Below, one piece after another: positions 7,303-41,204 of a stretch of 59,678 bases of DNA. The DNA comes from Bacteroidota bacterium (lineage in GTDB: Bacteria; Bacteroidota; Bacteroidia; UBA7662). The notes under the pieces are model-generated. The model was given only the letters and a program-made list of their open reading frames with translations. It ran no database searches and had not been told where the DNA came from. The translations under genes were made by a program, and so were the position numbers. Within the stretch, counting starts at the first letter, position 1. The number at the start of each line of letters is the position of its first letter. The stretch is taken from assembly GCA_005799025.1 (NCBI GenBank), contig SYHX01000052.1, positions 1 through 59,678 of the forward strand, in the 5' to 3' direction.

Positions 7303-7345
7303 GCGGCCTGCCCTAGCGTTGGAAGGTGAGGAATTGTGAAGTAAA

Positions 7346-19777: not shown

Positions 19778-19837
19778 AAGCAATTGCGATCCCAAATAAT
19801 TTATTGGGGGGTAGTATTGAATGATTTTCAAAAAAAT

Positions 19838-20153
19838 GGTTGCGCTATAAGCCAGATTCTGTATGCCTTGCGGCATTTCCACCATTTATCTAAGCGGCCT
19901 ACCCCCCGGGAACGCACGAGCAACGCTGCCCCGGTATACACGGCCTTGCAACCCAGGAGGTTTACCCCAAACCGATGTCACCATCGGAGCGCGTGAGCTC
20001 TTACCTCACGTTTTCACCCTTGACCTTGCGGCCGGTTCTTTTCTGTGGCACTTTCTACCGGGTTACCCCGGCCTTTGTTTCCAAAGCCTGGCGCTCTGCG
20101 TTGTCCGGACTTTCCTCCAGCACCAAGGTGCCAGCGGCGGAACGCGCAACCGC
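19838..20153 (-). ncRNA. rnpB: RNase P RNA, bacterial type A
   Basis: The minus strand carries these universally conserved blocks in order: GGAGGAAAGUCCGGAC (P4 5' strand), AGUGCCACAGAAAA, CAAGGGUGAAA, GUGAGGUAAGAGCUCACG, GGUAAACC, GGGUAGGCCGCUUAGA and ACAGAAUCUGGCUUAU (P4 3' strand). The terminal P1 pairs GGUUGCGC (5') with GCGCAACC (3'). Ends are approximate to within a few nt. Confidence 0.9.
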
Positions 20154-20160
20154 AACGAAG

Positions 20161-21564
20161 TTAAGCTCCATAGAGGGTATTTCGGGCTTCTTGGAGGATG
20201 GCCTCCGTTTCTTCTCGGGTATTGGATTCAGCATAAATCCTCAAAACAGGCTCGGTTCCAGAAGCGCGAAACATTACCCAGTCATTTTCGTTTAGCCAAC
20301 ATTTGAAGCCATCGGTCGATTCAGTTCGTTGCACGGTATAGGGTCCGAAATGAGTGTATGCCCCATTAGCCAATTGAGTCATGACTTCCGTCTTGTGTCC
20401 ATCTTCGATGTGCAAGTCCCATCGATCATACCAAAAGGTACCAGAAATAGCGTAGACTTCCTGGATAAGTTCTTCCAAGGTTTTGCCGGATTTGGCCATG
20501 TATTCCATCAGGGTCAAACCGATCCATATCCCATCCCTTTCGGGGATATAGCCGTCAATCGCGATCCCACCAGACTCTTCGCCTCCGACCAAAACCCCTC
20601 CCTTGCACATGATTTCACAAATGTATTTGAATCCTATGGGGGTGACCTCAAGGTCTAGACCGTAGTATTCGCATACTTTGGCTATACGGGGACTTACCGA
20701 AAAGGAAACGACGACACGGCCTCTTCGCTTTTGGACTCCTGCTAAGTAGGCTACTAATAACATCAAAATATGATGGGAATCCACAAAATTTCCTGAAGAA
20801 TCCACAAGCCCGATGCGATCGGCATCACCATCTACGGCCAAGCCAATTTTCAAATGGGTTTGATTCGCCATAGTTGTGGAAAGCTCATGGAGATTGCGAG
20901 CAATGGGTTCAGGGGCCTGGCCGTTGAAGCCAGGATTGTGCTGGCAATGAAGTAAATGAGCTTTGGGAAACAAGGCCGGAATAACGCCTTGACCCGCCCC
21001 GTACATTGCATCGAAGGCAAGGCCATGGGAAATACCGGCGATAGCTTCCAAATCAAAATTCGAGCGAATTTCTTCGAGGTAAGCCTGCATGAGGTCTATT
21101 TTCTGGACCATTCCTTGCGAAATCCAATAATCCATAGAACGGGTCAGCGTGGGAATCTCATCCGGAATAAGTTCCTCGACTTCGCTAATCATGGATGGAA
21201 TGGCAGGACCTCCATAGTGAGCTTTGATTTTGAATCCGTTGTATGCCGGTGGATTGTGGCTGGCGGTGAGAATAATACCTGCCTGGGCCCTATTTTGACA
21301 AGTACCTAAAGAAACCATGGGAGTGGATACAAAGTCGTTTTGGTCCCAAAGAACTTTGACCCCACTTTGAGCCAAGACTCTGGCAACCACCTCGGCAAAC
21401 ATGCGTCCTCCAAAGCGGCAGTCTGACCCCAAAACCACCAATGGCTGCGAATTATGCTTGAGAAGCCAAGATGCCGTTCCCTGAGCAACCCTTGATACAT
21501 GATCTACAGTGAATTCACGAGCGATAATCGCGCGCCATCCATCGGTTCCGAATTTGATTTTCAT
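20161..21564 (-). CDS. Alpha-D-phosphohexomutase (phosphoglucomutase/phosphomannomutase family)
   Basis: Motifs seen are MKIKFGTDGWRAII, the active-site loop TASHNPPAYNGFK, the metal loop AVDGDADR and GEESGG. I chose ATG 21564 over the upstream ORF start 21633. Confidence 0.87.
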   Translation of the reverse strand: MKIKFGTDGWRAIIAREFTVDHVSRVAQGTASWLLKHNSQPLVVLGSDCRFGGRMFAEVVARVLAQSGVKVLWDQNDFVSTPMVSLGTCQNRAQAGIILTASHNPPAYNGFKIKAHYGGPAIPSMISEVEELIPDEIPTLTRSMDYWISQGMVQKIDLMQAYLEEIRSNFDLEAIAGISHGLAFDAMYGAGQGVIPALFPKAHLLHCQHNPGFNGQAPEPIARNLHELSTTMANQTHLKIGLAVDGDADRIGLVDSSGNFVDSHHILMLLVAYLAGVQKRRGRVVVSFSVSPRIAKVCEYYGLDLEVTPIGFKYICEIMCKGGVLVGGEESGGIAIDGYIPERDGIWIGLTLMEYMAKSGKTLEELIQEVYAISGTFWYDRWDLHIEDGHKTEVMTQLANGAYTHFGPYTVQRTESTDGFKCWLNENDWVMFRASGTEPVLRIYAESNTREETEAILQEARNTLYGA

Positions 21565-21668
21565 GACCCAAATATAAATCTCAAGGATAAAGTGCTGTGG
21601 CATTGCAGAGATCTTGCTGCTCTTTTTGCCCAAAACCTTGTACTTTTACACAGTTAAAGCGACTTTCC

Positions 21669-22135: not shown

Positions 22136-22966
22136 ATGTTAATATTCAAATTCATGAAAAGTTACTTCATTTTCAATCTACAAATCTTGGGGTTTGGCAT
22201 ACTCTTAACTTTAATGTTAGGGTGTCAGCCAAATTCCCCTGAACCGCCCAACAACACAGGTTTAATTTTGGAATTAAACCATGTTTACGAAGTGGGACTA
22301 CCACCAGCGGCTTCCGTTCCTTTAGTTCTCAACCAAAGCTGGTTGCCCACCGCTATGAACCAAATTGAGATCAACCATTGTCAATATTATTTAACAGGCT
22401 TTGCTTTGCAGCGCTCGGACAGTACTTGGTTAGAATTTCCGGATGCAGTGGCCTATGCAGACTTGGAGCGTCAGTTTCAATATGCTTGGAAAATTTCTGA
22501 TACTGCTCCTGCCGGAACCTTTATTGGATATCGCATGGCCGTGGGTATAGATTCCCTACGAAACCACAGTGACCCCGCTGGATGGCCAGCGTCCAATCCA
22601 CTTTCTTTATTTAACAGTGCGCACATGCATTGGAATTGGAACACAGGGTATATTTTTTTCAAATTAGAAGGACAGTATCAACGTGTGGATCCGCCCTTAA
22701 ACGGGGGATTTTCCTATCATTTGGGCGGGGACTTCTTCTATCGCCCTATAATTCTCCGATTTCCACCGACTACATTAAACAAAGTTTTGGAAACCATGAA
22801 GGTTGAATTGCGTTTGCGTCAATTTTTTGACGGCAGCCACATCCATTGGATCACGGATTCTTCCTCATTTTCTCATGCATCCTTGGGGGACCGTGTTGCC
22901 GAGAAATTAGCTTCCAATCTTGGCGTTGCCTTTGAATGGAAAGGAATATCAAATACCAACCCCTAA
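22136..22966 (+). CDS. MbnP-like lipoprotein (partner of di-haem MauG/MbnH-type enzymes)
   Basis: Lipobox LTLMLGC. The strings INHCQYYLTGFAL and HMHWNWNTGYIFFKLEG resemble, from memory, the YYISN... and WSWxxGYxFxKxEG strings of Bacteroidota proteins annotated as MbnP family. Its position directly upstream of a di-haem peroxidase fits. The family call is tentative. Confidence 0.5.
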   Translation: MLIFKFMKSYFIFNLQILGFGILLTLMLGCQPNSPEPPNNTGLILELNHVYEVGLPPAASVPLVLNQSWLPTAMNQIEINHCQYYLTGFALQRSDSTWLEFPDAVAYADLERQFQYAWKISDTAPAGTFIGYRMAVGIDSLRNHSDPAGWPASNPLSLFNSAHMHWNWNTGYIFFKLEGQYQRVDPPLNGGFSYHLGGDFFYRPIILRFPPTTLNKVLETMKVELRLRQFFDGSHIHWITDSSSFSHASLGDRVAEKLASNLGVAFEWKGISNTNP

Positions 22967-22979
22967 GCCAAAGGGAACA

Positions 22980-24053
22980 GTGACTAATTTCCGATTTGCT
23001 TGGTTTCTGTTATTAGGACTTCTGTTGTTTGGTTGTAGGCCCGACAAGTCTAGAATTTTCCCTGCACCCACAACCTACAGCATAGATTTACCGCCACCTG
23101 GTCTTGGATTCCCCTCGTTGCCTTGGCCTACGGACAATCTTGCCACGGTCGAGGGTATTGCTTTGGGTCGTAAACTTTTTTACGATAAGGAATTGAGTTT
23201 GGATAGAACGGTAGCATGCGCATCTTGCCACCTGCCAAATCATGCATTCACGGATACTTTGGTGTATTCAAGAGGCGTGAACGGTACGCTAGGAACTCGC
23301 AATGCGATGCCTCTTTTTAATTTGTTATGGGCCAATCGTTTCTTTTGGGATGGACGCTCACCCAACCTCAGGGATCAGGTGGTTCAGCCTGTTCAAGATC
23401 CGTTGGAAATGCATTTGCCCTTGGAAGTGGCCCTATCTAGGCTTCAAGGTGATGCAGCGTACAGGGAGCGGTTTGGCAAGGCCTTTGGCGATGAAACGGT
23501 GAATGTCGAGCGCTTCCAAAAAGCGCTGGAGCAATTCCTCTTGTCCATGACTTCTTGGCGCTCCAAGTTTGACAAGGCCCGAATGGGACAGGCTACCATG
23601 AATCCTTCTGAGCAGCGGGGTTTGGATCTGTTCATGCGTGAATATTCTGCACCAAATACAGGGAGGCCATTAGGTGCCGATTGTTTCCACTGCCATGGAG
23701 GAGCACTTTTTACCAACCGTTTATTTGAAAACAATGGACTGGACTCGGTTCTCAAAACAGGCTATCAAGTGGTTACAGGGCTAGCAGGGGATCGAGGTAA
23801 ATTCAAGGTTCCTTCGCTTCGGAATGTGGGACTCACTTCACCGTATATGCACGATGGCCGCTTTGCTACTTTGGAGCAAGTTATTGATCATTATGATCAT
23901 GGCATCGTACAGAGCAGTACTTTGGATGCCAACCTAAGGATTCAGTCCGGTGGTTTGCGGCTGAGTTCTCAGGACAAGGCAGACCTTATTGCCTTTCTGC
24001 ATACCTTGACCGACAGCACGCTCGTTTCCAATCCTGCCTTCACTGAGCCTTGA
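22980..24053 (+). CDS. Di-haem cytochrome c peroxidase / MauG / MbnH-family lipoprotein
   Basis: There are two CxxCH haem motifs (ACASCH and CFHCH), a FWDGR motif between the haem sites, and PSLRNVGLTSPYMHDG. The ORF track starts at TTG 22920, which overlaps the upstream gene. GTG at 22980 gives the lipoprotein signal (M)TNFRFAWFLLLGLLLFGC. Confidence 0.85.
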   Translation: MTNFRFAWFLLLGLLLFGCRPDKSRIFPAPTTYSIDLPPPGLGFPSLPWPTDNLATVEGIALGRKLFYDKELSLDRTVACASCHLPNHAFTDTLVYSRGVNGTLGTRNAMPLFNLLWANRFFWDGRSPNLRDQVVQPVQDPLEMHLPLEVALSRLQGDAAYRERFGKAFGDETVNVERFQKALEQFLLSMTSWRSKFDKARMGQATMNPSEQRGLDLFMREYSAPNTGRPLGADCFHCHGGALFTNRLFENNGLDSVLKTGYQVVTGLAGDRGKFKVPSLRNVGLTSPYMHDGRFATLEQVIDHYDHGIVQSSTLDANLRIQSGGLRLSSQDKADLIAFLHTLTDSTLVSNPAFTEP

Positions 24054-24985
24054 GGACCTTTTTCTTAGGACAGATTTTGGTGATAATGATCTTCACATCA
24101 TGCGATGATCAAAGCATCGAAGGTCCCAAATCTTATTCGAAACAAGACCATGGAGAATCAGTGTTTGTTTCTTCTTCTTCTGCCTTAGGACAAGTTTTTT
24201 TTAGCGATCCGAGATTTTCCAGTGATGGCCGTGTGGCTTGTTCTTCATGCCATAGGGCAGAATTTGCGTTTGCCGATACAACGGCCATTTCAAGGGGTGT
24301 GTGGGGTAGACAAGGTATCCGAAATACACCCACTTTGGTGGGACTCCATGATGATATTCTACTCATGTGGGATGGGGGGGTTACCCCGCTACGTCACGGA
24401 AGTCAAGGCATCTTGGCTGCTTTGACCGCTCATCGTGACCAGGATATGAACCCCATTGACTTGGAAAAGAAATTGAGGCATTTTATAAATTATAAATTGA
24501 TTTTAAATCGATTATATCCTCGTCATTCCTTGGCGGCAGGATATCTCTTGTCCATCCGAGAATATGTGAGAGAGGTTGCCACCATTTCGAAAACAAGGGA
24601 TCGAAGTGCCAAAAACTCAAATGGTATTAAAAATAATTTCCAAAAAAATATAATCAACCAAGGTCTTGTCTTGTTCCAAGGCAAGGCAGGTTGTATTAGC
24701 TGCCACCATGGCCCCTCCTTGACCGACGGACGCTTCTATAATTTAGGTTTGGACTCGGTGGACCCAGGAAGGGCTGCCATTACATTATTGGAAGAAGACA
24801 GAGGCCGTTTTCGGACTCCACCGTTGGTGTTCCTCAAGAAGACGGCCCCGTATTTTCACAATGGATCTGCTCAGACATTAAATAATGTGTTGCAGCACTA
24901 CATAAATGGAGCGGGCGAGGCAGGGCAAATCAGCCTTAATTCAACAGAGCAAAACGCATTGCTAGCCTACCTAAATTCGCTGTAA
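24050..24985 (+). CDS. Second, shorter and more divergent di-haem cytochrome c peroxidase/MauG-like lipoprotein
   Basis: Motifs seen are CSSCH, CISCH, MWDGG and TAPYFHNG. The lipobox is IFTSC. The TTG start overlaps the preceding TGA (TTGA), which suggests translational coupling. Confidence 0.75.
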   Translation: MRTFFLGQILVIMIFTSCDDQSIEGPKSYSKQDHGESVFVSSSSALGQVFFSDPRFSSDGRVACSSCHRAEFAFADTTAISRGVWGRQGIRNTPTLVGLHDDILLMWDGGVTPLRHGSQGILAALTAHRDQDMNPIDLEKKLRHFINYKLILNRLYPRHSLAAGYLLSIREYVREVATISKTRDRSAKNSNGIKNNFQKNIINQGLVLFQGKAGCISCHHGPSLTDGRFYNLGLDSVDPGRAAITLLEEDRGRFRTPPLVFLKKTAPYFHNGSAQTLNNVLQHYINGAGEAGQISLNSTEQNALLAYLNSL

Positions 24986-26606: not shown

Positions 26607-27494
26607 ATGCAATTTGAATTTTATAAATACCAGGCTTGCGGTAATGATTTTGTTTTGGTGGATCTCATTTCTCCAACTACGACTTGGGCTACCCAGGCGT
26701 TTGATTCAAGGTTTTGGCAAAATGAAGCGGTGATGAGCATATGCTGCGATCGAAAATTTGGCGTAGGTGCAGATGGAATATTGGTTTTATTGCCCGTTAA
26801 GGAGTCTACTGACAAAAATCAAGACAAGCAGAGTAAGGCCGCCTATTACCTTCATTACTTGAATGCGAATGGCAAAGAAGGGTCATTGTGCGGTAACGGT
26901 TCGCGGTGTGCAGCGTCTCATGCTTTTCGCAAGGGTTATTTCCAAGGAGTTGAAGGGATTTTTGACTCAAGTGATGGAGAGCATCAAGTTTTACAGACTT
27001 CTGATGGTATGATTGCCTTGAGTATGCAAGCTCCTAAGGACATAAAGGTTTTAGAAATAGGAACCTATATTAACACTGGATCACCGCATTTGGTGTTGCC
27101 TGTTCGAGATCTTGTTAATTACCCAGTAGAACGCGAGGGCAGGTCTCTACGCGAACATTCGCTCTTTATGCCTATCGGTACCAATGTCAATTTCATGGAG
27201 GCAATTGATCTTAATCATTTGAAGATAAGAACATACGAACGTGGTGTGGAAGCAGAAACGCTTAGTTGTGGAACTGGGGCGGTAGCCTGCGCATTATTGC
27301 ATATGCAACAAAATTTAGCTGAGTTCAGCGACTCTGTTGCAGAAATTAATTTGCATTTCCGAGGAGGCAAAATGAAGGTAACCGCCTGCGTTGATTCTGT
27401 GGGTTCTATTCAACAAATAAACTTAATTGGCCCTGCTCATTGTGCATTCAAAGGTTTGTGGATGGGCTTTTCAGGCAAAACCTATAATTGGTGA
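26607..27494 (+). CDS. dapF: Diaminopimelate epimerase
   Basis: Motifs seen are FYKYQACGNDFVLVD and the catalytic Cys contexts LCGNGSRC and SCGTGAVA. Confidence 0.9.
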   Translation: MQFEFYKYQACGNDFVLVDLISPTTTWATQAFDSRFWQNEAVMSICCDRKFGVGADGILVLLPVKESTDKNQDKQSKAAYYLHYLNANGKEGSLCGNGSRCAASHAFRKGYFQGVEGIFDSSDGEHQVLQTSDGMIALSMQAPKDIKVLEIGTYINTGSPHLVLPVRDLVNYPVEREGRSLREHSLFMPIGTNVNFMEAIDLNHLKIRTYERGVEAETLSCGTGAVACALLHMQQNLAEFSDSVAEINLHFRGGKMKVTACVDSVGSIQQINLIGPAHCAFKGLWMGFSGKTYNW

Positions 27495-27566
27495 TTTATT
27501 TTTGAAAAAGATTCTTCGGTCCTCTAATCCACCACTTCGTTTAAGATTATTTACAAACTCGAATCC

Positions 27567-28943
27567 ATGACATTAATAGCATCCGTTTCAGGAATTCGAG
27601 GAACCATAGGTGGTCAACCTGGCTCGAATTTGACGCCTAACGATATCGTTTCTTTCGTCAATGCCTATGCAGGCATGTTGCTCGAAAAGGGGCATGGTCG
27701 CAAAGTTGTGGTGGGTCGTGATGCCCGTATTTCAGGAGAAATGGTGAGTCGCTTGGTTTGCGGCACCTTGATGGCTTGCGGATTAGATGTCATTGATTTA
27801 GGATTGACCACCACTCCAACCCTCGAGATGCAGGTACCTCGTGTTGGTGCATCAGGCGGTATTGTATTAACAGCATCTCATAATCCGGGGGAATGGAATG
27901 CCCTGAAATTATTGGATCACCACGGTTGCTTTATTAGCACTGAACAAGGGGCATCTCTGCTCTATAAGGTACAAAGTGGGGAAACAATCCCGTACGCTGC
28001 CGTGCATGAATTGGGCCAGTACCATTACGATGAATTCGCTTTGGATGCTCATATTCAAGATATTTTGGCTTTGCCCTTGGTGAATCGTCAAGCAATTGCA
28101 GACGCTGGCTTGCATGTTTTGGTAGATGGAATCAATTCGTCGGGTGCTGTGGCAGTTCCCGCGCTATTGGCCCAATTGGGCGTTCACCGTGTAGAGGTAT
28201 TGAATGAAGAGCCCAACGGCCATTTTGCTCATAACCCGGAACCTCTGCGAGAACATTTGGATGAGGTTTGCTCTGAGGTGGTTTCACGTCAAGTCCATTT
28301 GGGCATTGTAGTTGACCCCGATGTGGATAGACTCGCCTTCGTGATGGAGAATGGGGATTTGTTCGGAGAAGAATATACCTTGGTCGCAGTTGCGGATTAT
28401 GTAATGCGGCATCGTCCAGGTCCAGCAGTTTCCAATTTAAGTTCATCTAGGGGCCTTCGTGATTTATGCAACAGGTATCAACAGCCATATCATGCCTCAC
28501 CGGTAGGCGAAGTACATGTGGTCAAGGCTATGCGCGAAACAGGGGCTGTGATAGGGGGAGAAGGGAATGGAGGCATCATATTCCCTGATTTACATTACGG
28601 AAGGGATGCCTTGGTGGGTATTGCATTGTTTCTTACGCATTATGTGGAACAAGGACTGTCGATGAGTCAATTGAGATCCAAATACCCAGCCTACAGTATG
28701 GCCAAAGAAAAGGTGACCTTCGACCCCCACGCAAATCCTGAATTAATGTTGAAACGTTTGGCCGATTCTTTTCCTAATGCTGTGAAAAATTGGTCTGACG
28801 GACTCAAAATTGATTTGGAGGAAGGTTGGTTGCATGTCCGTAAATCCAATACGGAACCCATATTGCGCATTTATTCCGAAGCAGTTCAGGCGAGTGCCGC
28901 CGCCGAACTTGCGGCCAAAGCTCGCCAAATCCTAGGTTCATGA
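27567..28943 (+). CDS. glmM: Phosphoglucosamine mutase (Bacteroidota type)
   Basis: Motifs seen are LIASVSGIRGTIGG, TASHNPGEWNALK, DPDVDR and GEGNGG. The protein is 458 aa. Confidence 0.85.
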   Translation: MTLIASVSGIRGTIGGQPGSNLTPNDIVSFVNAYAGMLLEKGHGRKVVVGRDARISGEMVSRLVCGTLMACGLDVIDLGLTTTPTLEMQVPRVGASGGIVLTASHNPGEWNALKLLDHHGCFISTEQGASLLYKVQSGETIPYAAVHELGQYHYDEFALDAHIQDILALPLVNRQAIADAGLHVLVDGINSSGAVAVPALLAQLGVHRVEVLNEEPNGHFAHNPEPLREHLDEVCSEVVSRQVHLGIVVDPDVDRLAFVMENGDLFGEEYTLVAVADYVMRHRPGPAVSNLSSSRGLRDLCNRYQQPYHASPVGEVHVVKAMRETGAVIGGEGNGGIIFPDLHYGRDALVGIALFLTHYVEQGLSMSQLRSKYPAYSMAKEKVTFDPHANPELMLKRLADSFPNAVKNWSDGLKIDLEEGWLHVRKSNTEPILRIYSEAVQASAAAELAAKARQILGS

Positions 28944-31299: not shown

Positions 31300-31650
31300 A
31301 TGGCCATCATGATAACCGATCAGTGCATCAATTGCGGTGCATGTGAACCGGAATGTCCCAACAACGCGATTTATGAGGGAGGTATTTCTTGGAAATATGC
31401 CGAGGGCACCCAACTTCGTGAAATGGTTCAACGATCAGACGGATCCTTGGTTCATGCCCAAGACCCTATGACCCCGGTGAGCGATGATCTTTATTTTATT
31501 GTCCCCGATAAATGTACCGAATGCGAAGGTTTTCATGAAGAGCCTCAGTGTGCGGCGGTATGCCCAGTCGATTGCTGTGTTCCTGATCCCGAGCACAAAG
31601 AGTCCAAGGCTATCTTGCTCGACAGAAAGCAATACCTGCATGAATCATAA
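31300..31650 (+). CDS. 4Fe-4S dicluster ferredoxin
   Basis: Two cluster motifs are present, CINCGACEPECP and CTECEGFHEEPQCAAVCP. The protein is 116 aa. Confidence 0.87.
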   Translation: MAIMITDQCINCGACEPECPNNAIYEGGISWKYAEGTQLREMVQRSDGSLVHAQDPMTPVSDDLYFIVPDKCTECEGFHEEPQCAAVCPVDCCVPDPEHKESKAILLDRKQYLHES

Positions 31651-31658
31651 CATGGAAT

Positions 31659-34424
31659 TTGTATGATTATTTCTTTGAAAACATTACATACTCTGTGATT
31701 CCAGATTCGCCACAGCTACCGAAAATCAAAGTAGGGATTCTTTTTGGTGGTAATTCCCGCGAAAGAGAAGTTTCTTTTGCAGGAGGCCGTACGGTTTATG
31801 ATTTACTGAACAAAAGCATTTTTGAAGCAATTCCGTTTTTTGTTGATTCCTTTGGGTATTTGGTGGAGCTTGATTGGCCCTTTTTGTACAAAGGGAGTAT
31901 TAGAGACTTTTATCCTCCTTCAAGGTCATTCAACCACGAGTCAAAGTCTGATCATACCGATTCTACAAATACTGTTTCACAAAGCTCTTGGATGCCCTAT
32001 GCCGAACAGCATGAAGACTCGAGTCAACATGCAGAGGCATGGAGGAATGCAATAGGGAAACCTGTAGCTTGGGAAGACCTATCCCAAAGAATTGATTTGG
32101 TATTTATGGCATTGCACGGAAGGAATGGGGAAGATGGCCGGGTGCAGTCCATTTTGGATTTTTGGGAAATTCCTTATACGGGCTGTGGTGCTCGCTCTGC
32201 TGCATGGGGAATGAACAAGGTAGCTCAGCGGAGAGATATGCAGGCATCAGGCTGGGATGTTCCAAGTTACTTGTCCATTCCTAGGTTAGATTGGGTGGGG
32301 AATGGCTCTTCAGCCAGGGCTCTTTGGGTTGAGAAAATCATGATGCAATTTCCGAACGGTTGTGTTATCAAGGCTGCAAATCAAGGAAGCAGCATAGGTC
32401 TAACCTTGTTACGCGATTTGGATGCTAAGGCCATTGAAGAGGCCGTTGATAAAGCCTTTTTCACGTCAAGAATCTATAAGGCAGAATATCTAAATTCCGA
32501 CGGCACGGCCTTGGATCGATTGGCTGATTTTCGAACTGGCGTTGGATTTCCTTTGAGGGATCGAGCTTCAGGAAAGGTCTGGTATTCACCCACAGCTTGG
32601 GAGCATTGGTTTCTGAATGATTTTACGGGGGATATTTGCGAAAAGGAATCTTTGGATTCAGAAACTGATGTTTTGGTCGAAGAAATCATTGTTGGAAAAG
32701 AATTCTCTTGCATCGTTCTCGAAAAGATGGATTCTACTGTCTCTGCCTTGCCACCAACTGAAATTACATCTTCTCAAGAATTTTATGATTATCGATCCAA
32801 GTACCTCCCAGGACTTGCACGCAAGAAAACCCCCATTGATTTACCGAATGAACAAATTCATCAAATACGAAGGTCCTGTGAAAAACTTTTTAATGACTTT
32901 GATTTCTCAGTTTATGCACGTATTGATGGTTTTGTAACTAATGAGGGTAGAATCTACCTGAACGATCCTAATACTACATCGGGGATGATGCCCTCATCAT
33001 TTTTCTTTCAACAGGCTGCTGAAATTGGATTAAGTCCGTCGGCATTCCTTACCTATATCATAAGTGCCTCAATCAACGCAAGATTTAAAGAAAACCCCGC
33101 CTCCGATAGGTGCAAGAAATTAGAGAAACAGCTTGGTCAGTCTCTTGATTTGGTAAAGCAAGGTCAAGGGAAACGCAAGAGAATCGGCGTACTTATGGGG
33201 GGCTATTCTTCGGAACGGCATATTTCAGTAGAATCTGGTCGCAATATTTACGAAAAAATTTCTTCTACAGAAGGCTACGAAGCTATTTCTTTGTTTCTAA
33301 GCGGCAGCCCACAAAGTTGGGATCTTCATGAATTGCCAATTCATCTTCATTTGAAGGATAACGCAGATGATATTTTAACAGAAATTCAAAATGCTACAAG
33401 ACCGGGGGTGCTTGGACAAATCCGTGATGATTTCAAGGAGCTTTTGGGCATCTATGCTCCCAATGCCTTGGAATTTCCTATGCCCATTGCTTGGGAAGAA
33501 TTGGTAAATCAAGTTGATTTTGTTTTTATTGCCTTGCACGGAAGACCTGGTGAAGACGGGGCCTTGCAAGCACGACTGGATTCCTTGGGAATTCCATACA
33601 ACGGATCAGGGGTTAGCAGCAGCGCTTTAACAATAGATAAATTTCTTACTGGTCAATTGCTTCGTTCTTCTGGTCTTAAAGTGGCTGAACAGAAGCGAAT
33701 TTCAATCGAAGATTGGCGCGATGGTTTATACAAACCATTGTTGAAAGAGAAAGGTATTTGGCCTATGATTGCCAAGCCGCTTGATGATGGATGTTCAACG
33801 GCGGTTTACCGAGTGACATGCAAGGAAGAATTAGAAGCGTATGCGGAATTATCTTTTCGTGAAGTCAATGTTTGGCCCACGGAAGCCGCCTCATTACTGA
33901 AAGTTCATGGGGCTGAATGGTTTAATCGTTCGAGTGCATTTTTACTTGAGGAATTTATTTCAGCTCGCGAGAATGAATATTTATTGGAAATAACAGGGGC
34001 AATGTTGGTTCAAACGAATGCTGCAGGTCAGCGGTCTTACGAGGTCTTTGAGCCCTCGGAAAGTATTGCTGGACAAGGGATATTAAGCCTTGAAGAAAAG
34101 TTTCTGGCAGGACAAGGAACCAACATAACTCCAGCAAGTTTTGCAGAAGCACACGATGAACAGTGTCGGATAATGGGAATCGTGCAAGCAGAACTTTGCA
34201 AAGCAGCAGAGGTGGCCGGCGTTGAAGGTTATTGCCGAATTGATGCCTTTGTTGGAATATCCAAAGATGAGGATATTCGCGTAGTCATCATTGAGATTAA
34301 TTCACTCCCGGGTATGACACCCGCTACATGCATATACCATCAGGCGGCAATCGCCGGTTACTCTCCTCATCAGTTTATCGCAAAATTAATTGAATTAGGA
34401 ATCGAAAAAATGCAAAAAACATGA
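31659..34424 (+). CDS. ddl: Tandem double D-alanine--D-alanine ligase family (ATP-grasp) protein, 921 aa
   Basis: There are two full Ddl modules in one frame. Module 1 has VGILFGGNSREREVS, ALHGRNGEDG, KAANQGSSIG and ARIDGF...NDPNTTSGM. Module 2 has IGVLMGGYSSERHIS, ALHGRPGEDG, KPLDDGCSTAV and CRIDAF...IEINSLPGMTP. The start is TTG 31659 or GTG 31695. Confidence 0.8.
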   Translation: MYDYFFENITYSVIPDSPQLPKIKVGILFGGNSREREVSFAGGRTVYDLLNKSIFEAIPFFVDSFGYLVELDWPFLYKGSIRDFYPPSRSFNHESKSDHTDSTNTVSQSSWMPYAEQHEDSSQHAEAWRNAIGKPVAWEDLSQRIDLVFMALHGRNGEDGRVQSILDFWEIPYTGCGARSAAWGMNKVAQRRDMQASGWDVPSYLSIPRLDWVGNGSSARALWVEKIMMQFPNGCVIKAANQGSSIGLTLLRDLDAKAIEEAVDKAFFTSRIYKAEYLNSDGTALDRLADFRTGVGFPLRDRASGKVWYSPTAWEHWFLNDFTGDICEKESLDSETDVLVEEIIVGKEFSCIVLEKMDSTVSALPPTEITSSQEFYDYRSKYLPGLARKKTPIDLPNEQIHQIRRSCEKLFNDFDFSVYARIDGFVTNEGRIYLNDPNTTSGMMPSSFFFQQAAEIGLSPSAFLTYIISASINARFKENPASDRCKKLEKQLGQSLDLVKQGQGKRKRIGVLMGGYSSERHISVESGRNIYEKISSTEGYEAISLFLSGSPQSWDLHELPIHLHLKDNADDILTEIQNATRPGVLGQIRDDFKELLGIYAPNALEFPMPIAWEELVNQVDFVFIALHGRPGEDGALQARLDSLGIPYNGSGVSSSALTIDKFLTGQLLRSSGLKVAEQKRISIEDWRDGLYKPLLKEKGIWPMIAKPLDDGCSTAVYRVTCKEELEAYAELSFREVNVWPTEAASLLKVHGAEWFNRSSAFLLEEFISARENEYLLEITGAMLVQTNAAGQRSYEVFEPSESIAGQGILSLEEKFLAGQGTNITPASFAEAHDEQCRIMGIVQAELCKAAEVAGVEGYCRIDAFVGISKDEDIRVVIIEINSLPGMTPATCIYHQAAIAGYSPHQFIAKLIELGIEKMQKT

Positions 34425-34993
34425 ATCCTTCAGTACGTAAATTTTGGTTATGGTTTTTTTCGATAAACCTTGTGTTGATTATTGGAATATTTCTAAGTAT
34501 TAAAATCTATACTGCACATGGTCAATCCATTAAAATCCCGGTTCTTGTAGGTCTTTCTGTTGAGAAGGCTAAAAGTATTTTGGATGAAATGAAATTAGAA
34601 GTTGTGATTGCAGATTCTTTGTTTGAATTAAACATGCCACCCGGCTCTGTTATACATACAGATCCTTCAGCGGGAATTGAGGTTAAGGTAGGTAGGAGGG
34701 TATACCTGACCTTAAATTCATTTACCCCAACACTATCGAGAGTTCCGAATTTAACGGATCTATCATTACATAAAGCCTCCATCGATCTAAAAGCGAAGGG
34801 CTTTTTCATCGGACAAATCGTTAAGCGGCCTGATATTGCTAAAGATTTTGTCCTCTTTGGTGAATTTAATGGTAGGACCTTAAGGGAAGGAGAAATGCTT
34901 CCGATGGGTTCAACGATAGACCTCTATGTAGGTACGGGCGAGAATGTAAATGAGGTAGATAGCACTTCATTGGTTTATGAAGAAGAATATTAA
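34421..34993 (+). CDS. PASTA domain-containing membrane protein
   Basis: An N-terminal TM helix (FWLWFFSINLVLIIGIFLSI) is followed by two PASTA-like repeats (IPVLVGLSVEKAKSILDEMKLEV... and VPNLTDLSLHKASIDLKAKGF...). It shares an ATGA overlap with the ddl-like gene. Confidence 0.7.
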   Translation: MNPSVRKFWLWFFSINLVLIIGIFLSIKIYTAHGQSIKIPVLVGLSVEKAKSILDEMKLEVVIADSLFELNMPPGSVIHTDPSAGIEVKVGRRVYLTLNSFTPTLSRVPNLTDLSLHKASIDLKAKGFFIGQIVKRPDIAKDFVLFGEFNGRTLREGEMLPMGSTIDLYVGTGENVNEVDSTSLVYEEEY

Positions 34994-35072: not shown

Positions 35073-36995
35073 ATGAGTATTTTTGTTAAGAGTTTTATTT
35101 TACTTTTTTTCTTTTTCGGGAAAATACTGGTATATGCCCAGGAAGGAGTATTTCCTATACGTTTTAATTCAACCTTACAGAATTTTTATATCCAAGCGAC
35201 AAATACAGGACCTACCGGAATTCTACGTTCCAACGATACTCTGACTTTGCCATTTGTGGATGACTTCTCCTATTCCGGGTTTATTCCCAACCCTCATTTG
35301 TGGGCGGATCGTCATGTTTTTCGCAACAACGATATGGCGATACGACCTCCAGGACAAGGATTTGTGACCTTTGATGGATTGGATTCCACAGGTCGTCCTT
35401 ACGATAATAGTTCTTTGTCTGCCTCAGGTCGAGCGGATTTTTTAACAACGCTGCCAATCCGCCTTGGATCTTTTACTGTGGCAGATTCTTTGGTTTTGAC
35501 TTTTGCGTATCAACCGGCGGGTTGGTCAGAAAGCCCTGAGCCCACCGATTCGTTGATTTTGGAGTTTCAGTCGAGCAGCGGTGCGTGGAACCGGGTTTGG
35601 TATGCGAATGGTTCATCGGCCCTGCCTTTTCGGTATGCAATCATTGGCTTGAACGATCCGCAATATCTCTACGATGGGATGCGTATGCGGTGGGTGAATT
35701 ACGGATCCCTCACGGGCTTAGTGGATTGCTGGCATTTGGATTATGTTTTCCTTAATTCGAGTAGAACCATTTCGGATACTCTTTTTAATGACATTGCTTT
35801 GGTGCAAACCAATGCTACATACCTACGTCCTTACCGAAGTATGCCCCTGAATCAATTTTTGCAGGATACCTCCAGATTCCTGAATCCTACGCACGGTGTT
35901 TCTGTAGTGAATAACGGTGGCTCGGTAAGCTACGATCGCTCCTATCGCGTGTTTTCTCCAAGTTCCTCGGTTCCTTTGGTCACCAGTTCACCCTTACCCT
36001 CTTTGACGTTGGGGACCTTGGGCAGTACGGGATTGATTTTTCAGCGATTTGCCGTTCCCACAAGCAGCGCGGATAGCCTGACCCTTCGAATTGAATATGC
36101 GGTGCAGGCTGTAGGAGACAACCTCACTCGCAATGATACTTTGATGGAATCTGTAAAGCTTTGGAATGAATTTGCGTACGATGACGGGACCGCCGAAACC
36201 GGGTATGGAATTAATGTGATTGCTGGTTCCTGTGCGAATAAATTTTGGCTTTCGAGGCCCGATACATTGAGGGGAGTTTGGATATACTTCACCCAAGCCG
36301 CCGCTAATGCTTCCAACGAGTTGTTTGTTCTCAAAGTTTGGTCCCAAATTCAAGAAGGGGGCAGATCGGCAACCGAAATTTTTCGGTCTTCCATCCCTTA
36401 CCGCCCTCGGTATGGAGATAGCATTGGACAATTTCAATACTTTGCAATTAACCCTCCTTTGGTCGTTCAGGATTCTTTCTATATCGGGTGGCAGCAAGAA
36501 ACTTCAGGGCTCATTAACATAGGGCTTGATCGCAATGACACCTTGGTTCGCTATAACCGATGGTTTAATACCCAAGGTATTTGGGAGGAATCCTCAATCG
36601 CAGGTTCCTGGATGATTCGTCCTGTCATGGGGGGACCCTTTCGGTATCCAACGTATAACCAACCTCTCAAGAATGCAGTCCACTCGGAATGGCTGGTAAT
36701 TCCGAACCCTGTAAATAGCTCGATTCCAGTAATCAGCATTCGGGGATTCGGTCAATTGAAGTATGCTCAGGTACACAATGTTACAGGGGAATTAATGGCA
36801 CATTATCGTTTGGGAGTTTCGCAAGACGATCAACCAATCCCAAGTCAGGCAACGACCATATTTGAGTCACTCTTGGAGTCTGATGGATCCTACCAAATCG
36901 AAATTCCATTAAAGGCTACGAAGCCGGGTGTTTACTTCTTTTTGCTTCAGGAAGTTGACGGCTCTTTTCATCGTTGCAAATTCCTAATCCAATAA
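35073..36995 (+). CDS. Secreted protein of unknown function with T9SS type A (Por_Secre_tail) C-terminal domain
   Basis: Signal peptide MSIFVKSFILLFFFFGKILVYAQ. The C-terminus reads LVIPNPVNSSIPVISI...VHNVTGELM...KPGVYFFLLQ...CKFLIQ, which is typical of a type A CTD. I recognise no catalytic motif. Confidence 0.65.
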   Translation: MSIFVKSFILLFFFFGKILVYAQEGVFPIRFNSTLQNFYIQATNTGPTGILRSNDTLTLPFVDDFSYSGFIPNPHLWADRHVFRNNDMAIRPPGQGFVTFDGLDSTGRPYDNSSLSASGRADFLTTLPIRLGSFTVADSLVLTFAYQPAGWSESPEPTDSLILEFQSSSGAWNRVWYANGSSALPFRYAIIGLNDPQYLYDGMRMRWVNYGSLTGLVDCWHLDYVFLNSSRTISDTLFNDIALVQTNATYLRPYRSMPLNQFLQDTSRFLNPTHGVSVVNNGGSVSYDRSYRVFSPSSSVPLVTSSPLPSLTLGTLGSTGLIFQRFAVPTSSADSLTLRIEYAVQAVGDNLTRNDTLMESVKLWNEFAYDDGTAETGYGINVIAGSCANKFWLSRPDTLRGVWIYFTQAAANASNELFVLKVWSQIQEGGRSATEIFRSSIPYRPRYGDSIGQFQYFAINPPLVVQDSFYIGWQQETSGLINIGLDRNDTLVRYNRWFNTQGIWEESSIAGSWMIRPVMGGPFRYPTYNQPLKNAVHSEWLVIPNPVNSSIPVISIRGFGQLKYAQVHNVTGELMAHYRLGVSQDDQPIPSQATTIFESLLESDGSYQIEIPLKATKPGVYFFLLQEVDGSFHRCKFLIQ

Positions 36996-37578: not shown

Positions 37579-39789
37579 TCAGTGATCAAAATCACTGTCC
37601 CTTAGTTTGGGATTAATTGTACCTTCTTTGACCTGAAATTCAATTTGCTGAGGCCCCATACTGATATTAACTTTGTGAGGAATCAAAAGCCCTTTGCCAA
37701 TATCCCTATAGTCCGAGAATGAAGTGGTATTCGAGGCTTCCTTACCGTCAGGGCCTTTGGAATTCCGTAACGTTTGAACCTTGAGACCTGTGCTAAGGTT
37801 GTAGAAATGGCTTTCGGTATTTCCATTCAAATAAGTCCAATCAAGTCTTACGCAAAGGTCTTTGTTGAGAATTGCCGCTCCTCCCAATTTCAATTTGCCG
37901 TTAGATTGAGCCAACCATTCGATCTCCGGACAAGGGAGCGCATCGAGTGCTTGCTGAGCAGTCTCCTCCGTATCCGTAGGCCTATCTCCTTGCATACTTT
38001 TGCGTGAAAGTTTCCCGTCCTTATACAAATCGGAGGACATGACCATCGTGCTGTTCAATTTAACGGTGGTCAATGAGGACAAGGGCTTGCGTTGTTTGAT
38101 TTCAATCAACTCCAAATTCATTCCTTGGAGGGTGGCGGACATGACCGTTCGCATGCTTTGGACTTTGGACCAAGCCTTGACGCCACCAGTTGCTTGGACG
38201 TATTGATTCAATATGGATTCCAAGGTGACATTGGCAGGTAATTTGATGGCGGTAGGGTCTTCGGTAATTTCACCATTCCAGTCCACCCATTCGATTTTCC
38301 CATCACTGTCTAGGGCCTTGAGCTTAGGCCCGATTTCTGAGCCTTTGCCTACGCAAATCACGACGCAATTTTGAGGTTGAATCATTTTGCGAGCCATATC
38401 TTGAACTTTGGGAGCATCAACCCCAGCTAATTCTTGCAGATAATTACGGTAATAGGAAGGTGACATTTTGTAGCGCTCCTGGTCAATGTAGAATCCAGCG
38501 ATGGTTTGGGGGTTCTGAAGAGAAATCGAAAAGGTTCCATTGAGGTAGTTCAGTACTCCCTGCAATTCTTCTTGAGGAACCAAAGTGTCACGGATGCGGT
38601 TGAGTTCGAAGAAGAATTCACGAACGGCACTGTCGGTGACCGCATTCCGAACTTGAGCATAGGCGCGGAATTGTCCTACCAAGGGATTCCGGCTCAGGGA
38701 AGAATAGGCGCCGTAGGTATAACCATGGGTTTCACGAAGATTATCAAAGAGACGAGCATCGCTTGCTCCAAGGATGGTGTTCATTACCGACGATGGAATA
38801 ACATCAGAAGAACCAGGCAAAAGTTGCACCGTGTTCGCAATTCGGATCACAGTTTGCACCGCTTCGGGGCGGTCCGCCACCACAATTCGAACGCCTTGTT
38901 GGACCTTAGGGAGCGAATGCTTTTGCATTGGGACAACGTTTTTGGACCAATTTCCCAAATATTGCCGAGTAAAGCTTTCTGCAGTGGCCCTATCGATATC
39001 CCCTACAATGGCCAAATACGCGCAATTGGGTCTAAGGTATTGATCTCTAAACTCTTCACAATCCGTTAACTGAATGGACTCCAGTCCAGTGGAGGTCATA
39101 ATCTCTCCGTAAGGGTGCGCCGGACCGTACAAGAGTTTGGACAAAACCCTTTCGGCAATAGATTCGGCATTGCTTTTCTCGGTTTCGAGGTTAGAAAGGT
39201 TTTGTTTGACCAAGCGCTCCAATTCATTTTGGCGATACTTGGGTTGGGTAAGCATTTCACCGACCAAACCAAATACGGATTCCATATTACGACTTAAGGC
39301 AGACGCGTAAACGGATGTTGCGGAGGAGGAGAGCGTTAGCCCTAGCCGGTCGACTGCTTCGTCAAATTCTTCTTTGGATTTGCTCGCGGTACCGCATTTA
39401 ATCAGATCCCCGGTGATGTTGGATAAACCTGCTTTGGTACCTTCGAGTAAGGGATCATAGTCCCAAACCAAGGATAAACTAACACGCGGCAACTTGCGAT
39501 TGCGGACCAAAAACACTTTGAGGCCGTTTTCAAGTTCCCAACGTTCAGCTTCGGCCCAACGGATTTCTGGAGCAGGCTGGGGAAGAGGTATACGACTGCG
39601 ATCAAGAGGCGGTTCCGGCACGATTGGCGGAGTAGGTTGCATAACTTTTCCTTTGATGGATTTCGACGGCCCAGAAGTAGTGGCCTTGGTTTTGGTCTGT
39701 GCCCAAGCAGAAGAAATGCCCGTCAATGGGTCAGCGGAGTTGCCATAAAGGAAGGCGAGAAATAGAAGGAAAAGAGATTTGAATTTCAT
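37579..39789 (-). CDS. M16 (pitrilysin/insulinase) family protein, non-catalytic type, with extra C-terminal domain
   Basis: The M16 two-domain body is present, but the position of HxxEH reads GLSNITGDLIKCGT, so there is no zinc motif. It has a signal peptide and a Pro-rich linker. About 230 C-terminal residues lie beyond the M16 body. Confidence 0.75.
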   Translation of the reverse strand: MKFKSLFLLFLAFLYGNSADPLTGISSAWAQTKTKATTSGPSKSIKGKVMQPTPPIVPEPPLDRSRIPLPQPAPEIRWAEAERWELENGLKVFLVRNRKLPRVSLSLVWDYDPLLEGTKAGLSNITGDLIKCGTASKSKEEFDEAVDRLGLTLSSSATSVYASALSRNMESVFGLVGEMLTQPKYRQNELERLVKQNLSNLETEKSNAESIAERVLSKLLYGPAHPYGEIMTSTGLESIQLTDCEEFRDQYLRPNCAYLAIVGDIDRATAESFTRQYLGNWSKNVVPMQKHSLPKVQQGVRIVVADRPEAVQTVIRIANTVQLLPGSSDVIPSSVMNTILGASDARLFDNLRETHGYTYGAYSSLSRNPLVGQFRAYAQVRNAVTDSAVREFFFELNRIRDTLVPQEELQGVLNYLNGTFSISLQNPQTIAGFYIDQERYKMSPSYYRNYLQELAGVDAPKVQDMARKMIQPQNCVVICVGKGSEIGPKLKALDSDGKIEWVDWNGEITEDPTAIKLPANVTLESILNQYVQATGGVKAWSKVQSMRTVMSATLQGMNLELIEIKQRKPLSSLTTVKLNSTMVMSSDLYKDGKLSRKSMQGDRPTDTEETAQQALDALPCPEIEWLAQSNGKLKLGGAAILNKDLCVRLDWTYLNGNTESHFYNLSTGLKVQTLRNSKGPDGKEASNTTSFSDYRDIGKGLLIPHKVNISMGPQQIEFQVKEGTINPKLRDSDFDH

Positions 39790-39845
39790 AATAAATTATC
39801 TTGATCGGATGGATTAAATAATCACAAATGGAAAGGCCTAAATGC

Positions 39846-41204
39846 TCAAGGTTTAGGTTTGGGCATATAATATAAGGTCACCTGATTGGTGGACACCAAA
39901 TAGGTATTGGCTACCCGGCGAATATCTGCTGGGGTTACCTTACGAAAACGCTCAAATTCCGTGTTGATCAGGTTGGCGTCGCCATAAAAGAGTTCGTAGT
40001 CACTCAATTGCTCGGCGATGCCTTGCACGGTTCCCAATTGGGCGACCCGATCGCTTTCGAGTTGGGTAAGCAATTTGTTCAGTTCAGACTGTTGAACGTT
40101 TTCTTCGCGAATCTGCCGGTATTCTTCCTTCATGGCCAGATTCAAGGAATCCACGGAAACGCCCATGTTGACAATGCCGTACATGATGGCCACCCCATGA
40201 TCCACCATTCCCAGTGGAAAAGCCCCAACCGCTACCGCTTTCTGCTGGCGATCCGCGATGGACTTCTGAAAACGAGAAGAAGCTCCCTGTGATAGTAAAC
40301 TAGTCAGCATGCTCATGGGATAAAAATCAGGAGTTCCTTGAGCGGGCATTTTGAAAGAATGGACAATGGCAGGCAATTGAATGTTATCATAAACGGTGTC
40401 AATACGCTCGGTGGTTTGGACAAGTTCTGCCGGATTGGGTCTGGGAATGGGGCGCGTTGACGATGGAACCGTCCCAAAATAGCGGTTAACCCATGCCTTG
40501 ACCTGTTCGGATTGGAAGTCTCCCGCAATGGAGAGCACCGCATTGTCCGGAACATAGAAGGTGCGGTAAAAGTCCATGAATTCTTCGAGTTTGGCAGAGT
40601 TGAGGTGATCCATTGAACCAATGACCGAACGGCCGTAGGGGTGCTGCAGAAATGTACGTCGCATGGTTTGATCCAATAGTCCGCCGTAAGGGGTATTGTC
40701 GTAACGCTGACGCCTTTCCTCTTTGACCACCTCCCTTTGGGTTTCAATTCCTTGGTCTTCGATTTTGGCATGGAGCATGCGCTCGCTCTCCATCCATAGA
40801 CCCAGCTCCAATTGGTTGGAGGGCAATATTTCGAAATAGAAGGTTCTATCGTAAAATGTGTTGGCATTAAGTACTCCTCCATTGGTTTTGACCAATTTCA
40901 TGTATTCACCACGTCCTATATTCTCACTGCCTTCAAAAAGCAAATGCTCAAAAAAGTGCGCAAAACCTGTTCGGGCAGGGTCCTCGTTTTTGCTACCGAC
41001 CTTGTAGGATACGGTAACAGCGACAATAGGTGTTGAGCTGTCTTGATGCAGAATGACTTTGAGGCCGTTAGCAAGTTGGTATTTCTCAAAGGAAATCACT
41101 TGGGCAGAGCTCCACTGAATTCCAACAAGGAAACCAGCAATCATCAGCATTAGTATCCAGTTCCTTGGAGTTGTACGGTTGGCGGTTTGGTTCGTTACTT
41201 GCAT
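39846..41204 (-). CDS. M16 family zinc peptidase (catalytic subunit type)
   Basis: The inverted zinc motif HFFEHLLFEG and a downstream E are present. The protein is 452 aa with a signal/anchor, and it lies directly upstream of the non-catalytic partner. Confidence 0.88.
   Translation of the reverse strand: MQVTNQTANRTTPRNWILMLMIAGFLVGIQWSSAQVISFEKYQLANGLKVILHQDSSTPIVAVTVSYKVGSKNEDPARTGFAHFFEHLLFEGSENIGRGEYMKLVKTNGGVLNANTFYDRTFYFEILPSNQLELGLWMESERMLHAKIEDQGIETQREVVKEERRQRYDNTPYGGLLDQTMRRTFLQHPYGRSVIGSMDHLNSAKLEEFMDFYRTFYVPDNAVLSIAGDFQSEQVKAWVNRYFGTVPSSTRPIPRPNPAELVQTTERIDTVYDNIQLPAIVHSFKMPAQGTPDFYPMSMLTSLLSQGASSRFQKSIADRQQKAVAVGAFPLGMVDHGVAIMYGIVNMGVSVDSLNLAMKEEYRQIREENVQQSELNKLLTQLESDRVAQLGTVQGIAEQLSDYELFYGDANLINTEFERFRKVTPADIRRVANTYLVSTNQVTLYYMPKPKP

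Follow-up and report, generated by a model that had tools for sequence, protein, structure and literature searches.

A D-alanine–D-alanine ligase of Bacteroidota whose single chain combines a Tyr-type with a Phe-type module

Introduction

Ddl, or D-alanine–D-alanine ligase, is indispensable and is targeted by an antibiotic (D-cycloserine), and it normally acts as a dimer. A Tyr/Phe switch in its substrate pocket underlies the intrinsic vancomycin resistance of lactic acid bacteria. A precedent for diverged ATP-grasp modules that divide the work within one chain is the large subunit of carbamoyl-phosphate synthetase, in which two modules stand in tandem and each carries out a different phosphorylation step. 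Here we describe a Ddl-family gene that encodes two complete modules in a single reading frame, found on contig SYHX01000052.1 of a Bacteroidota assembly (GCA_005799025.1; the whole stretch of 59,678 nt analysed here is referred to as the window). In our search of the full-text literature we found no description or assay of a two-module Ddl, and the matches to "Ddl fusion" were all chlamydial or verrucomicrobial MurC-Ddl proteins. We show that the tandem gene belongs to a widespread family in which one module has the pocket residues of a canonical Tyr-type Ddl and the other has an invariant Phe-type pocket, and we consider it very probably a real, functional, heterotypic two-module Ddl serving peptidoglycan synthesis.

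Results

The tandem ddl gene occupies positions 31659..34424 of the forward strand, which also carries the neighbouring ferredoxin, PASTA and 640-aa-protein genes described below, and comprises 921 codons when counted from a TTG at 31659. Public databases give a gene call of 909 aa for the identical sequence, matching a start at the GTG at 31695. As originally predicted, this single unbroken frame holds two complete Ddl modules, and no stop or frameshift was found between them in the window; the open reading frame is probably an intact housekeeping-type gene. Module 1 (31722..33098, aa ~22–480) and module 2 (33171..34415, aa ~505–919) are each 420–490 aa long owing to inserts, and they are joined by a linker (33099..33170) that forms the end of a long helical segment (AlphaFold2 helices 448–466 and 471–489, model numbering).

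Whether the protein was scanned entire or as two separate halves, we detected the Pfam domains Dala_Dala_lig_N and Dala_Dala_lig_C in each half, all of them above the gathering cut-offs of 34.6 bits (PF01820) and 24 bits (PF07478), with respective scores of 87.6 and 108.7 bits for module 1 and 77.4 and 58.6 bits for module 2. Aligned to each other over their full length, the halves are 25% identical (E = 2e-26). The NCBIfam Ddl models match the full protein in several stretches; TIGR01205, with a cut-off of 245.65 bits, gives 357.1 bits for the full protein, and module 1 alone outscores module 2 alone (208.9 versus 154.9 bits), while NF002378 gives 199.9 and 160.5 bits for modules 1 and 2 against a cut-off of 243. 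Because each module alone falls under these cut-offs, both must be regarded as divergent, and the Ddl name of the protein rests on the sum of two divergent, sub-threshold modules. Within the family the two halves are equally conserved, with mean identities to the window protein of 49.9% for module 1 and 49.3% for module 2.

For a survey of active-site residues, both halves of 119 full-length family members were aligned to E. coli DdlB, using a reference sequence that we confirmed to be identical to PDB 2dln/1iov. In DdlB numbering, E15, H63, K97, K144, S151, E180, E187, K215, R255, D257, N272 and G276 are invariant in both modules of all 119 members. At other positions the modules differ from each other just as consistently: the residue corresponding to S150 is Ser in module 1 and Cys in module 2, that at Y216 is Tyr and Phe, that at E270 is Asp and Glu, and that at S281 is Ser and Thr, in each case in 119/119 members, and L282 is replaced by Phe in module 1 and by Cys in module 2 (118/119). 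An independent HMMER alignment to DdlB gave the same residue equivalences and paired the sequence EEKFL of module 2 with EAKFL of 1iow, the DdlB Y216F mutant; this mutant is also the best PDB sequence match of the C-terminal half, narrowly above the wild type.

In the window protein, module 1 has a canonical substrate pocket (E35, H153, S244, Y382 and S447) and contains in full the D-Ala:D-Ala triad E15-S150-Y216 together with S281 (E35, S244, Y382 and S447), in addition to the ATP- and Mg-related residues K187, K238, E341, E348, K381, R421, D423 and N438. The proposal that Asp takes the place of the Mg-binding Glu in this module proved correct, as a D-P-N motif (D436 and N438; 32964..32972) replaces E-x-N and D436 of the sequence LNDPN sits at E270; Asp is also found at this position in module 1 of nearly all representatives of classes B and C, which are described below. 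Module 2 keeps the residues for ATP and Mg binding and phosphoryl transfer (E519, H627, K661, K706, E764, E777, K814, R860, D862, E879 and N881), and its pocket is altered to C712, F815, T890 and C891, such that the triad with S281 is incomplete (E519, C712, F815 and T890). The changed GSS loop of this module, which had also been predicted, reads G-C-S, with Cys712 (33792..33794) at the Ser150 position, and its omega loop carries Lys814-Phe815 (34098..34103) at K215-Y216 within a motif, LSLEEKFLAGQG, that is likewise invariant in the family. F815 thus matches the Phe expected at the position of DdlB Y216 and LmDdl2 F261, a match that is a mechanistic resemblance and not family membership.

An AlphaFold2 model of the 909-aa chain, built from a 44-sequence alignment, had a predicted local distance difference test (pLDDT) score of 84.1 and a predicted template modelling (pTM) score of 0.86, the latter of which argues for a defined, fixed relative placement of the two modules in the predicted structure. 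Model confidence was low only at the extreme N-terminus, in the variable insert and in the two omega loops. The insert is the Ser/His/Asp-rich segment in the N-terminal domain of module 1 whose existence the original prediction had correctly recognised (31920..31985, aa ~88–109); its columns have no majority residue in the family consensus, the region has a pLDDT of 28–51 (model residues ~71–100), and it is probably a disordered loop. Foldseek searches matched only Ddl, VanA, VanG and LmDdl2 structures, with one module per match.

We then consider the distribution of the fused form. We scanned GTDB at one genome per species, with two peptide motifs of module 1 as the query, and found relatives in at least 553 species. 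The 80 loci listed are all from metagenome-assembled genomes (MAGs), the majority with a Bacteroidota lineage as their label; a few are assigned to other phyla, apparently through errors in binning or labelling. Among the carriers is the complete genome of Candidatus Pollutiaquabacter aromativorans (CP185379.1), assigned by NCBI taxonomy to its own order of Bacteroidia, and a literature search for "Pollutiaquabacter" found no paper. A protein search recovered more than 120 clusters (90% identity) of relatives that are 887–935 aa long and 47–77% identical to the query, along with one shorter cluster entry of 737 aa that spans only 80% of it; the named clusters derive from Bacteroidota, Bacteroidia, Cytophagia or Flavobacteriales MAGs. 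The usual database name is "D-alanine--D-alanine ligase", and Joint Genome Institute (JGI) entries are sometimes called "UDP-N-acetylmuramate--alanine ligase", which on tandem proteins is a mislabel. The architecture is no rarity: two modules in one frame are what Ddl ordinarily looks like in this lineage, and the form is already annotated as Ddl, which is largely the outcome that the original prediction had itself named as speaking against it. No single-module ddl was found elsewhere in the 59.7-kb window, nor in the 8 kb around the tandem gene at any of the 80 loci, a result that says little about whole genomes.

The same data bear on the possibility that two neighbouring ddl genes were joined by a sequencing or assembly error. 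A truly split, two-gene version does exist in one lineage, but its 138-nt spacer has stops in all frames and is quite unlike the linker in the window. Across all 80 loci the halves are collinear neighbours, the frame is unbroken in the window and in 77 of the 80 independent assemblies by a strict continuous-frame test, and the stops in the other three are confined to the 5′ edge of the match. Database clusters of 890–935 aa number more than 120; these lengths and the collinear, continuous related loci rule out merged genes, for which we see a vanishingly small chance.

The relationship between the modules was judged by group-wise identities across architectures. Mean identities were 32–39% for module 1 against module 1 and 31–38% for module 2 against module 2, compared with 23–29% for module 1 against module 2 and 28–30% for either module against DdlB. 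Because the modules group by type, and not by protein, across three tandem architectures, the heterotypic pair must be old, and the identities would fit either the fusion of two Ddl paralogues that were distinct beforehand or a duplication of very great age. An internal duplication had initially been proposed from the string P(V/I)AWE(D/E)L, which both halves of the window protein share just before ALHGR. This argument fails, given that the window protein is the only one of the 119 members with the string in both halves, and that its halves, at 25% identity to each other, are closer to E. coli DdlB (about 30% each). A recent duplication of one ddl, followed by divergence within the lineage, would be in keeping with the Ddl-family membership of both halves and with the shared string, yet it is highly improbable in light of these values, of the separate groups formed by modules 1 and 2, which are common to tandem families labelled Patescibacteria, and of the existence of a ~800-aa family (class B) in which module 1 lacks large inserts.

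To place the tandem gene in its wider family, we conducted an exhaustive search of 1.84 billion representative proteins, which returned 379 representatives at E ≤ 1e-30; the best 150 of these are almost all multi-module proteins or fragments of them. We assigned architectures by domain parsing and Pfam scans. Class A (~860–935 aa) is the type found in the window, with a long module 1 and a long module 2, and class A-PASTA (1197–1285 aa) adds one transmembrane (TM) helix and PASTA repeats to it. Class B (~780–850 aa) combines a module 1 of canonical size with a long module 2 and includes members labelled Patescibacteria and one "Rickettsiales" MAG, and class C (~705–754 aa) has two shorter modules of roughly canonical size. 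A GNAT-Ddl-Ddl protein of 987 aa carries an N-terminal acetyltransferase domain ahead of two modules. With isolated exceptions only, classes A, B and C share S150/Y216/D270/S281 in module 1 and C150/F216/E270/T281 in module 2. Some of the shorter tandem proteins occur in quite different contexts that have no PASTA neighbour: P0207 (L084, 824 aa), from a MAG with the label Rickettsiales, adjoins one NlpC/P60 and one terminase-like gene, and P0174 (L089, 754 aa) adjoins WD40 and ankyrin-repeat genes on a 1.1-Mb contig.

In the split class, the modules are encoded by two genes (477 and 425 aa, at 6001-7434 and 7573-8850 of L081) with a 138-nt spacer between them and a PASTA gene after them. The module-1 protein was found on six contigs, the spacer is identical in the three loci fetched (L081:6001-8850, L082 and L083), and the first gene terminates exactly at the position of the inter-module linker in the window. 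Modules 1 and 2 can thus exist as separate polypeptides, and this natural split supports the logic of a heterodimer. The spacer is AT-rich and holds the sequence TATCTTTG, which resembles TAnnTTTG, the −7 promoter motif of Bacteroidota.

Other relatives have kept one module or lost the catalytic residues. In a shortened class of 570–634 aa (P0184 at L086:2940-4844 and similar proteins), module 1 is intact, and where the tails can be aligned (P0184, P0192 and P0195) they are a decayed remnant of the N-domain of module 2 from which E15 and the ALHGRxGEDG motif have been lost, which suggests a structural role for this N-domain. Some lineages that keep module 1 can dispense with module 2 or have let it decay, and module 1, which also has the higher Ddl scores, would be the core enzyme. 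In several Ddl-Ddl-TM-PASTA fusions of 1197–1236 aa that are 29–33% identical to the window protein (P0171, P0173, P0176, P0189, P0193 and P0202), most catalytic residues are gone from both Ddl modules, and these fusions are probably pseudo-enzymes kept as cytoplasmic domains of PASTA membrane proteins. There is also a stand-alone, 402-aa module-2-type gene (P0204; L087:5001-6209), which matches module 2 of the window protein. It occurs on eight contigs, none of which has a module-1 gene in the 5 kb around it, and it adjoins an M16 peptidase gene, and M16 peptidase genes also lie near the window locus, at 37579–41204.

These decayed relatives, together with the lower Ddl-model score of module 2, raise the question of whether module 2 of the window family is itself a pseudo-enzyme, able to bind nucleotide or D-Ala but acting as a structural or regulatory partner of module 1. 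In the window family, however, every residue for ATP and Mg binding and phosphoryl transfer is invariant in module 2 at only ~48% sequence identity, as is the omega loop motif, which is the pattern expected of an active enzyme. We therefore consider a pseudo-enzyme improbable, and the earlier suggestion of one catalytic and one regulatory half is disfavoured by the invariance of these residues in both halves.

The gene immediately downstream of the tandem ddl (34421..34993) encodes a bitopic membrane protein that has a TM helix near its N-terminus (a hydrophobic helix at residues ~5–27) and two PASTA repeats (PF03793, 59.2 bits against a gathering cut-off of 23.2). The predicted tight coupling of the two genes is well supported: the ddl stop and the PASTA start share the sequence ATGA at 34421–34424, 42 of the 77 family-A loci with enough sequence have a PASTA gene directly downstream, mostly overlapping the ddl stop or only a few bases off, and the relatives of 1197–1285 aa unite the PASTA part and the tandem Ddl in one protein, with exactly one predicted TM helix between them. 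A single TM helix between the parts would place the Ddl-Ddl portion in the cytoplasm and the PASTA repeats in the periplasm. The association is strong but not universal.

Searches with the PASTA protein as a single sequence found only five proteins, compared with 317 in a profile search; the 120 profile matches listed are all 250–360 aa long, and the named ones come from Bacteroidota MAGs. Two of the profile matches that we looked up again (L090 and L091) adjoin tandem Ddl genes, followed by type IX secretion cargo and then by an RluD-like gene. A linkage of PASTA, rluD and ddl may also extend to canonical ddl in cultured Bacteroidota. The window PASTA protein has 190 aa, compared with 246–277 aa in most relatives, including the closest (L001 and L002, 246 aa), and lacks the C-terminal ~56 aa that these possess.

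Membership of further neighbouring genes in a functional unit was also considered. A 640-aa protein (35073..36995) follows the PASTA gene in 38 of the 80 loci, and its membership is uncertain; the protein in the window had no Pfam match, and the one at the corresponding position in L090 and L091 has a Por_Secre_tail domain (type IX secretion sorting) and precedes a gene for an RluD-like pseudouridine synthase. Upstream lies a gene for a 2x[4Fe-4S] ferredoxin (31300..31650). The reported spacing of 8 nt between its stop, at 31650, and the tandem ddl holds for the TTG start and becomes 44 nt if the GTG start is used, and the arrangement is conserved in only 7 of the 80 loci. We rejected the ferredoxin as part of the unit on the basis of this count, and its gene probably does not belong to it.

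The window as a whole is ordinary Bacteroidota chromosomal DNA with housekeeping surroundings, and it also holds lepA, gyrA, type IX secretion cargo genes and a bacterial class A RNase P RNA (19832–20153, reverse strand, 200 bits). On the same strand as the tandem ddl and 3–5 kb upstream of it are dapF-like (diaminopimelate epimerase) and glmM-like (phosphoglucosamine mutase) genes (26607–28943), both with functions in peptidoglycan-precursor synthesis, and a second gene of the phosphoglucomutase/phosphomannomutase (PGM/PMM) family is found at 20161–21633 on the reverse strand. At 22136–24985 a gene of the MbnP family precedes two that encode di-haem cytochrome c peroxidases (MauG/MbnH-like), which looks like a copper-acquisition-type MbnPH cluster. 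The first 2000 nt have a GC content of 0.536 and an AT skew of +0.21, above the rest of the window; the reverse strand there encodes a transporter (MatE) and a family-5 solute-binding protein, and the skew is probably due to strand-specific codon composition.

Discussion

Our preferred explanation, to which we assign a probability of roughly 0.6, is that the single chain unites two Ddl paralogues of ancient divergence, both of them catalytic, as a covalent heterodimer, with an altered specificity in module 2 and a functional link to the PASTA protein. Module 1, which has the equivalents of E15, S150, Y216 and S281, would make the D-Ala-D-Ala of the UDP-MurNAc-pentapeptide. Since its ATP-grasp catalytic apparatus is complete, module 2 would also be an active ligase, with altered second-substrate selectivity. 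The Ser/Tyr hydroxyl pair that favours an amine nucleophile is gone from a C150/F216 pocket; this change is known to turn Ddl toward making D-Ala-D-lactate (a depsipeptide) or, more generally, to affect the choice of second substrate, and would do so in module 2. The membrane-anchored PASTA partner could plausibly tether the cytoplasmic supply of dipeptide, or tune it to the state of the wall. Of the roles initially proposed for the two halves, a difference in second-substrate specificity is thus the one that the residues favour, as module 2 is invariantly C150/F216/T281 and retains its catalytic residues.

A simpler possibility is that both modules make D-Ala-D-Ala, that the fusion stabilises the dimer or fixes a 1:1 stoichiometry, and that the changes in the pocket of module 2 are neutral or merely tune kinetics. 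The dimeric state of ordinary Ddl, the presence of all catalytic residues in both modules, the conservative nature of the Ser-to-Cys and Ser-to-Thr changes and the annotation of the gene everywhere as Ddl are all consistent with such a fused dimer, and the lone module-2-type gene, which has no module-1 gene nearby, implies that a module-2-type enzyme may serve as a general Ddl. On the other hand, C150/F216/T281 is common to all 119 members (119/119) and turns up again in two further tandem families, which points to selection on a distinct pocket rather than drift, and the loss or decay of module 2 in lineages that retain module 1 indicates that the modules are not equivalent. Moreover, the Tyr-to-Phe change at this site is a documented specificity switch: whether the residue is Phe or Tyr decides between depsipeptide and dipeptide activity in the Ddl of lactic acid bacteria, as in the F261Y variant of the L. 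mesenteroides enzyme (PMC5996685). We therefore regard a plain fused dimer as unlikely, though it is the likeliest of the alternatives.

Several observations weigh against the catalytic heterodimer that we favour. Each half alone lies below the NCBIfam Ddl cut-offs, and module 2 is far under the equivalog cut-offs for D-Ala-D-Lac and D-Ala-D-Ser ligases (91 versus 550 bits). The analogy suggested by F216 stands on one position plus C150, and D-Ala-D-Lac termini would have no obvious use in a Gram-negative lineage. The Asp in place of Glu270 may weaken Mg binding, so that module 1, and not module 2, might be the impaired site. Lastly, the PASTA neighbour is absent from 35 of the 77 loci. The claim that module 2 has a different product is a tentative one, drawn from pocket residues, that we would rate at somewhat under even odds. 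The fullest version of the proposal, in which one polypeptide makes two precursor termini (D-Ala-D-Ala and a depsipeptide or other D-Ala-X) in an output set by a periplasmic PASTA sensor, is speculative and would more probably prove wrong than right.

Taken alone the window is ordinary, as its gene is the standard, already annotated form in the lineage. The interest lies in the family, with its conserved Tyr-type/Phe-type pair and its split, fused and PASTA-fused variants, which are uncharacterised in the literature searched. The occurrence of a Tyr-type and a Phe-type module in one natural chain across hundreds of species would represent a new structural solution, a heterotypic pseudo-dimer, and would provide a ready-made system for studying what determines the selectivity for the second substrate. 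That PASTA proteins are repeatedly coupled to the enzyme, in some cases by outright fusion, suggests a direct link between wall sensing outside the cell and precursor synthesis inside it. If the two-termini version were true, a large uncultured part of the Bacteroidota, together with the relatives labelled Patescibacteria, would build or regulate wall precursors in a manner that has been described for no model organism. The family also has implications for annotation, as proteins are named Ddl here only through summed sub-threshold modules and some relatives appear to be pseudo-enzymes.

In comparison with known systems, both modules share with E. coli DdlB (PDB 2dln) and DdlA-type enzymes the three-domain Ddl fold, the PF01820 and PF07478 domains and the ATP, Mg and transition-state residues, and module 1 additionally has the E15/S150/Y216 triad and S281 of canonical Ddl. 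The tandem protein differs from canonical Ddl in having two non-identical modules per chain instead of a homodimer, in the length of these modules (420–490 aa each versus 306–370 aa), in the Asp at E270 of module 1 and the C150/F216/T281 of module 2, and in that each module scores under the TIGR01205 cut-off. Module 2 shares with LmDdl2 of Leuconostoc (PDB 1ehi) and with 1iow the Phe at the position that separates depsipeptide from dipeptide activity, but it differs from the LmDdl2 type in its Cys at S150, in its Gram-negative Bacteroidota hosts and in its score of 51 bits on 1ehi. This score and the 91 bits obtained with the D_ala_D_lac equivalog NF000206 (90 bits for module 1), against a cut-off of 550, indicate that module 2 is not a member of the D-Ala-D-Lac families. 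Scores were similarly low for the VanA/B/D-type models (67–77 bits against cut-offs of 650–775) and for the D-Ala-D-Ser ligases (VanC/E/G/L/N, NF000207), where the best value was 142 bits (VanG, module 1) against 495.

The MurC-Ddl proteins of Chlamydiae (NF011171) likewise join Ddl to another peptidoglycan-precursor ligase in a chain of 800–900 aa, but the tandem protein has no Mur ligase domain, its partner being a second Ddl module, and it matches this model only through the Ddl part (182.5 bits against a cut-off of 1015). Carbamoyl-phosphate synthetase belongs to another ATP-grasp family with a different chemistry and tunnel-coupled steps, whereas nothing in the tandem Ddl points to sequential chemistry. 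Finally, the PASTA partner in the window resembles PknB/Stk1-type kinases and PBP2x in presenting extracytoplasmic PASTA repeats behind a single TM helix; it matches PknB_PASTA_kin (NF033483) through the PASTA part only (64 bits against a cut-off of 450), and in place of the kinase or transpeptidase domain of those sensors it has a Ddl as its cytoplasmic partner, either fused to it or translationally coupled.

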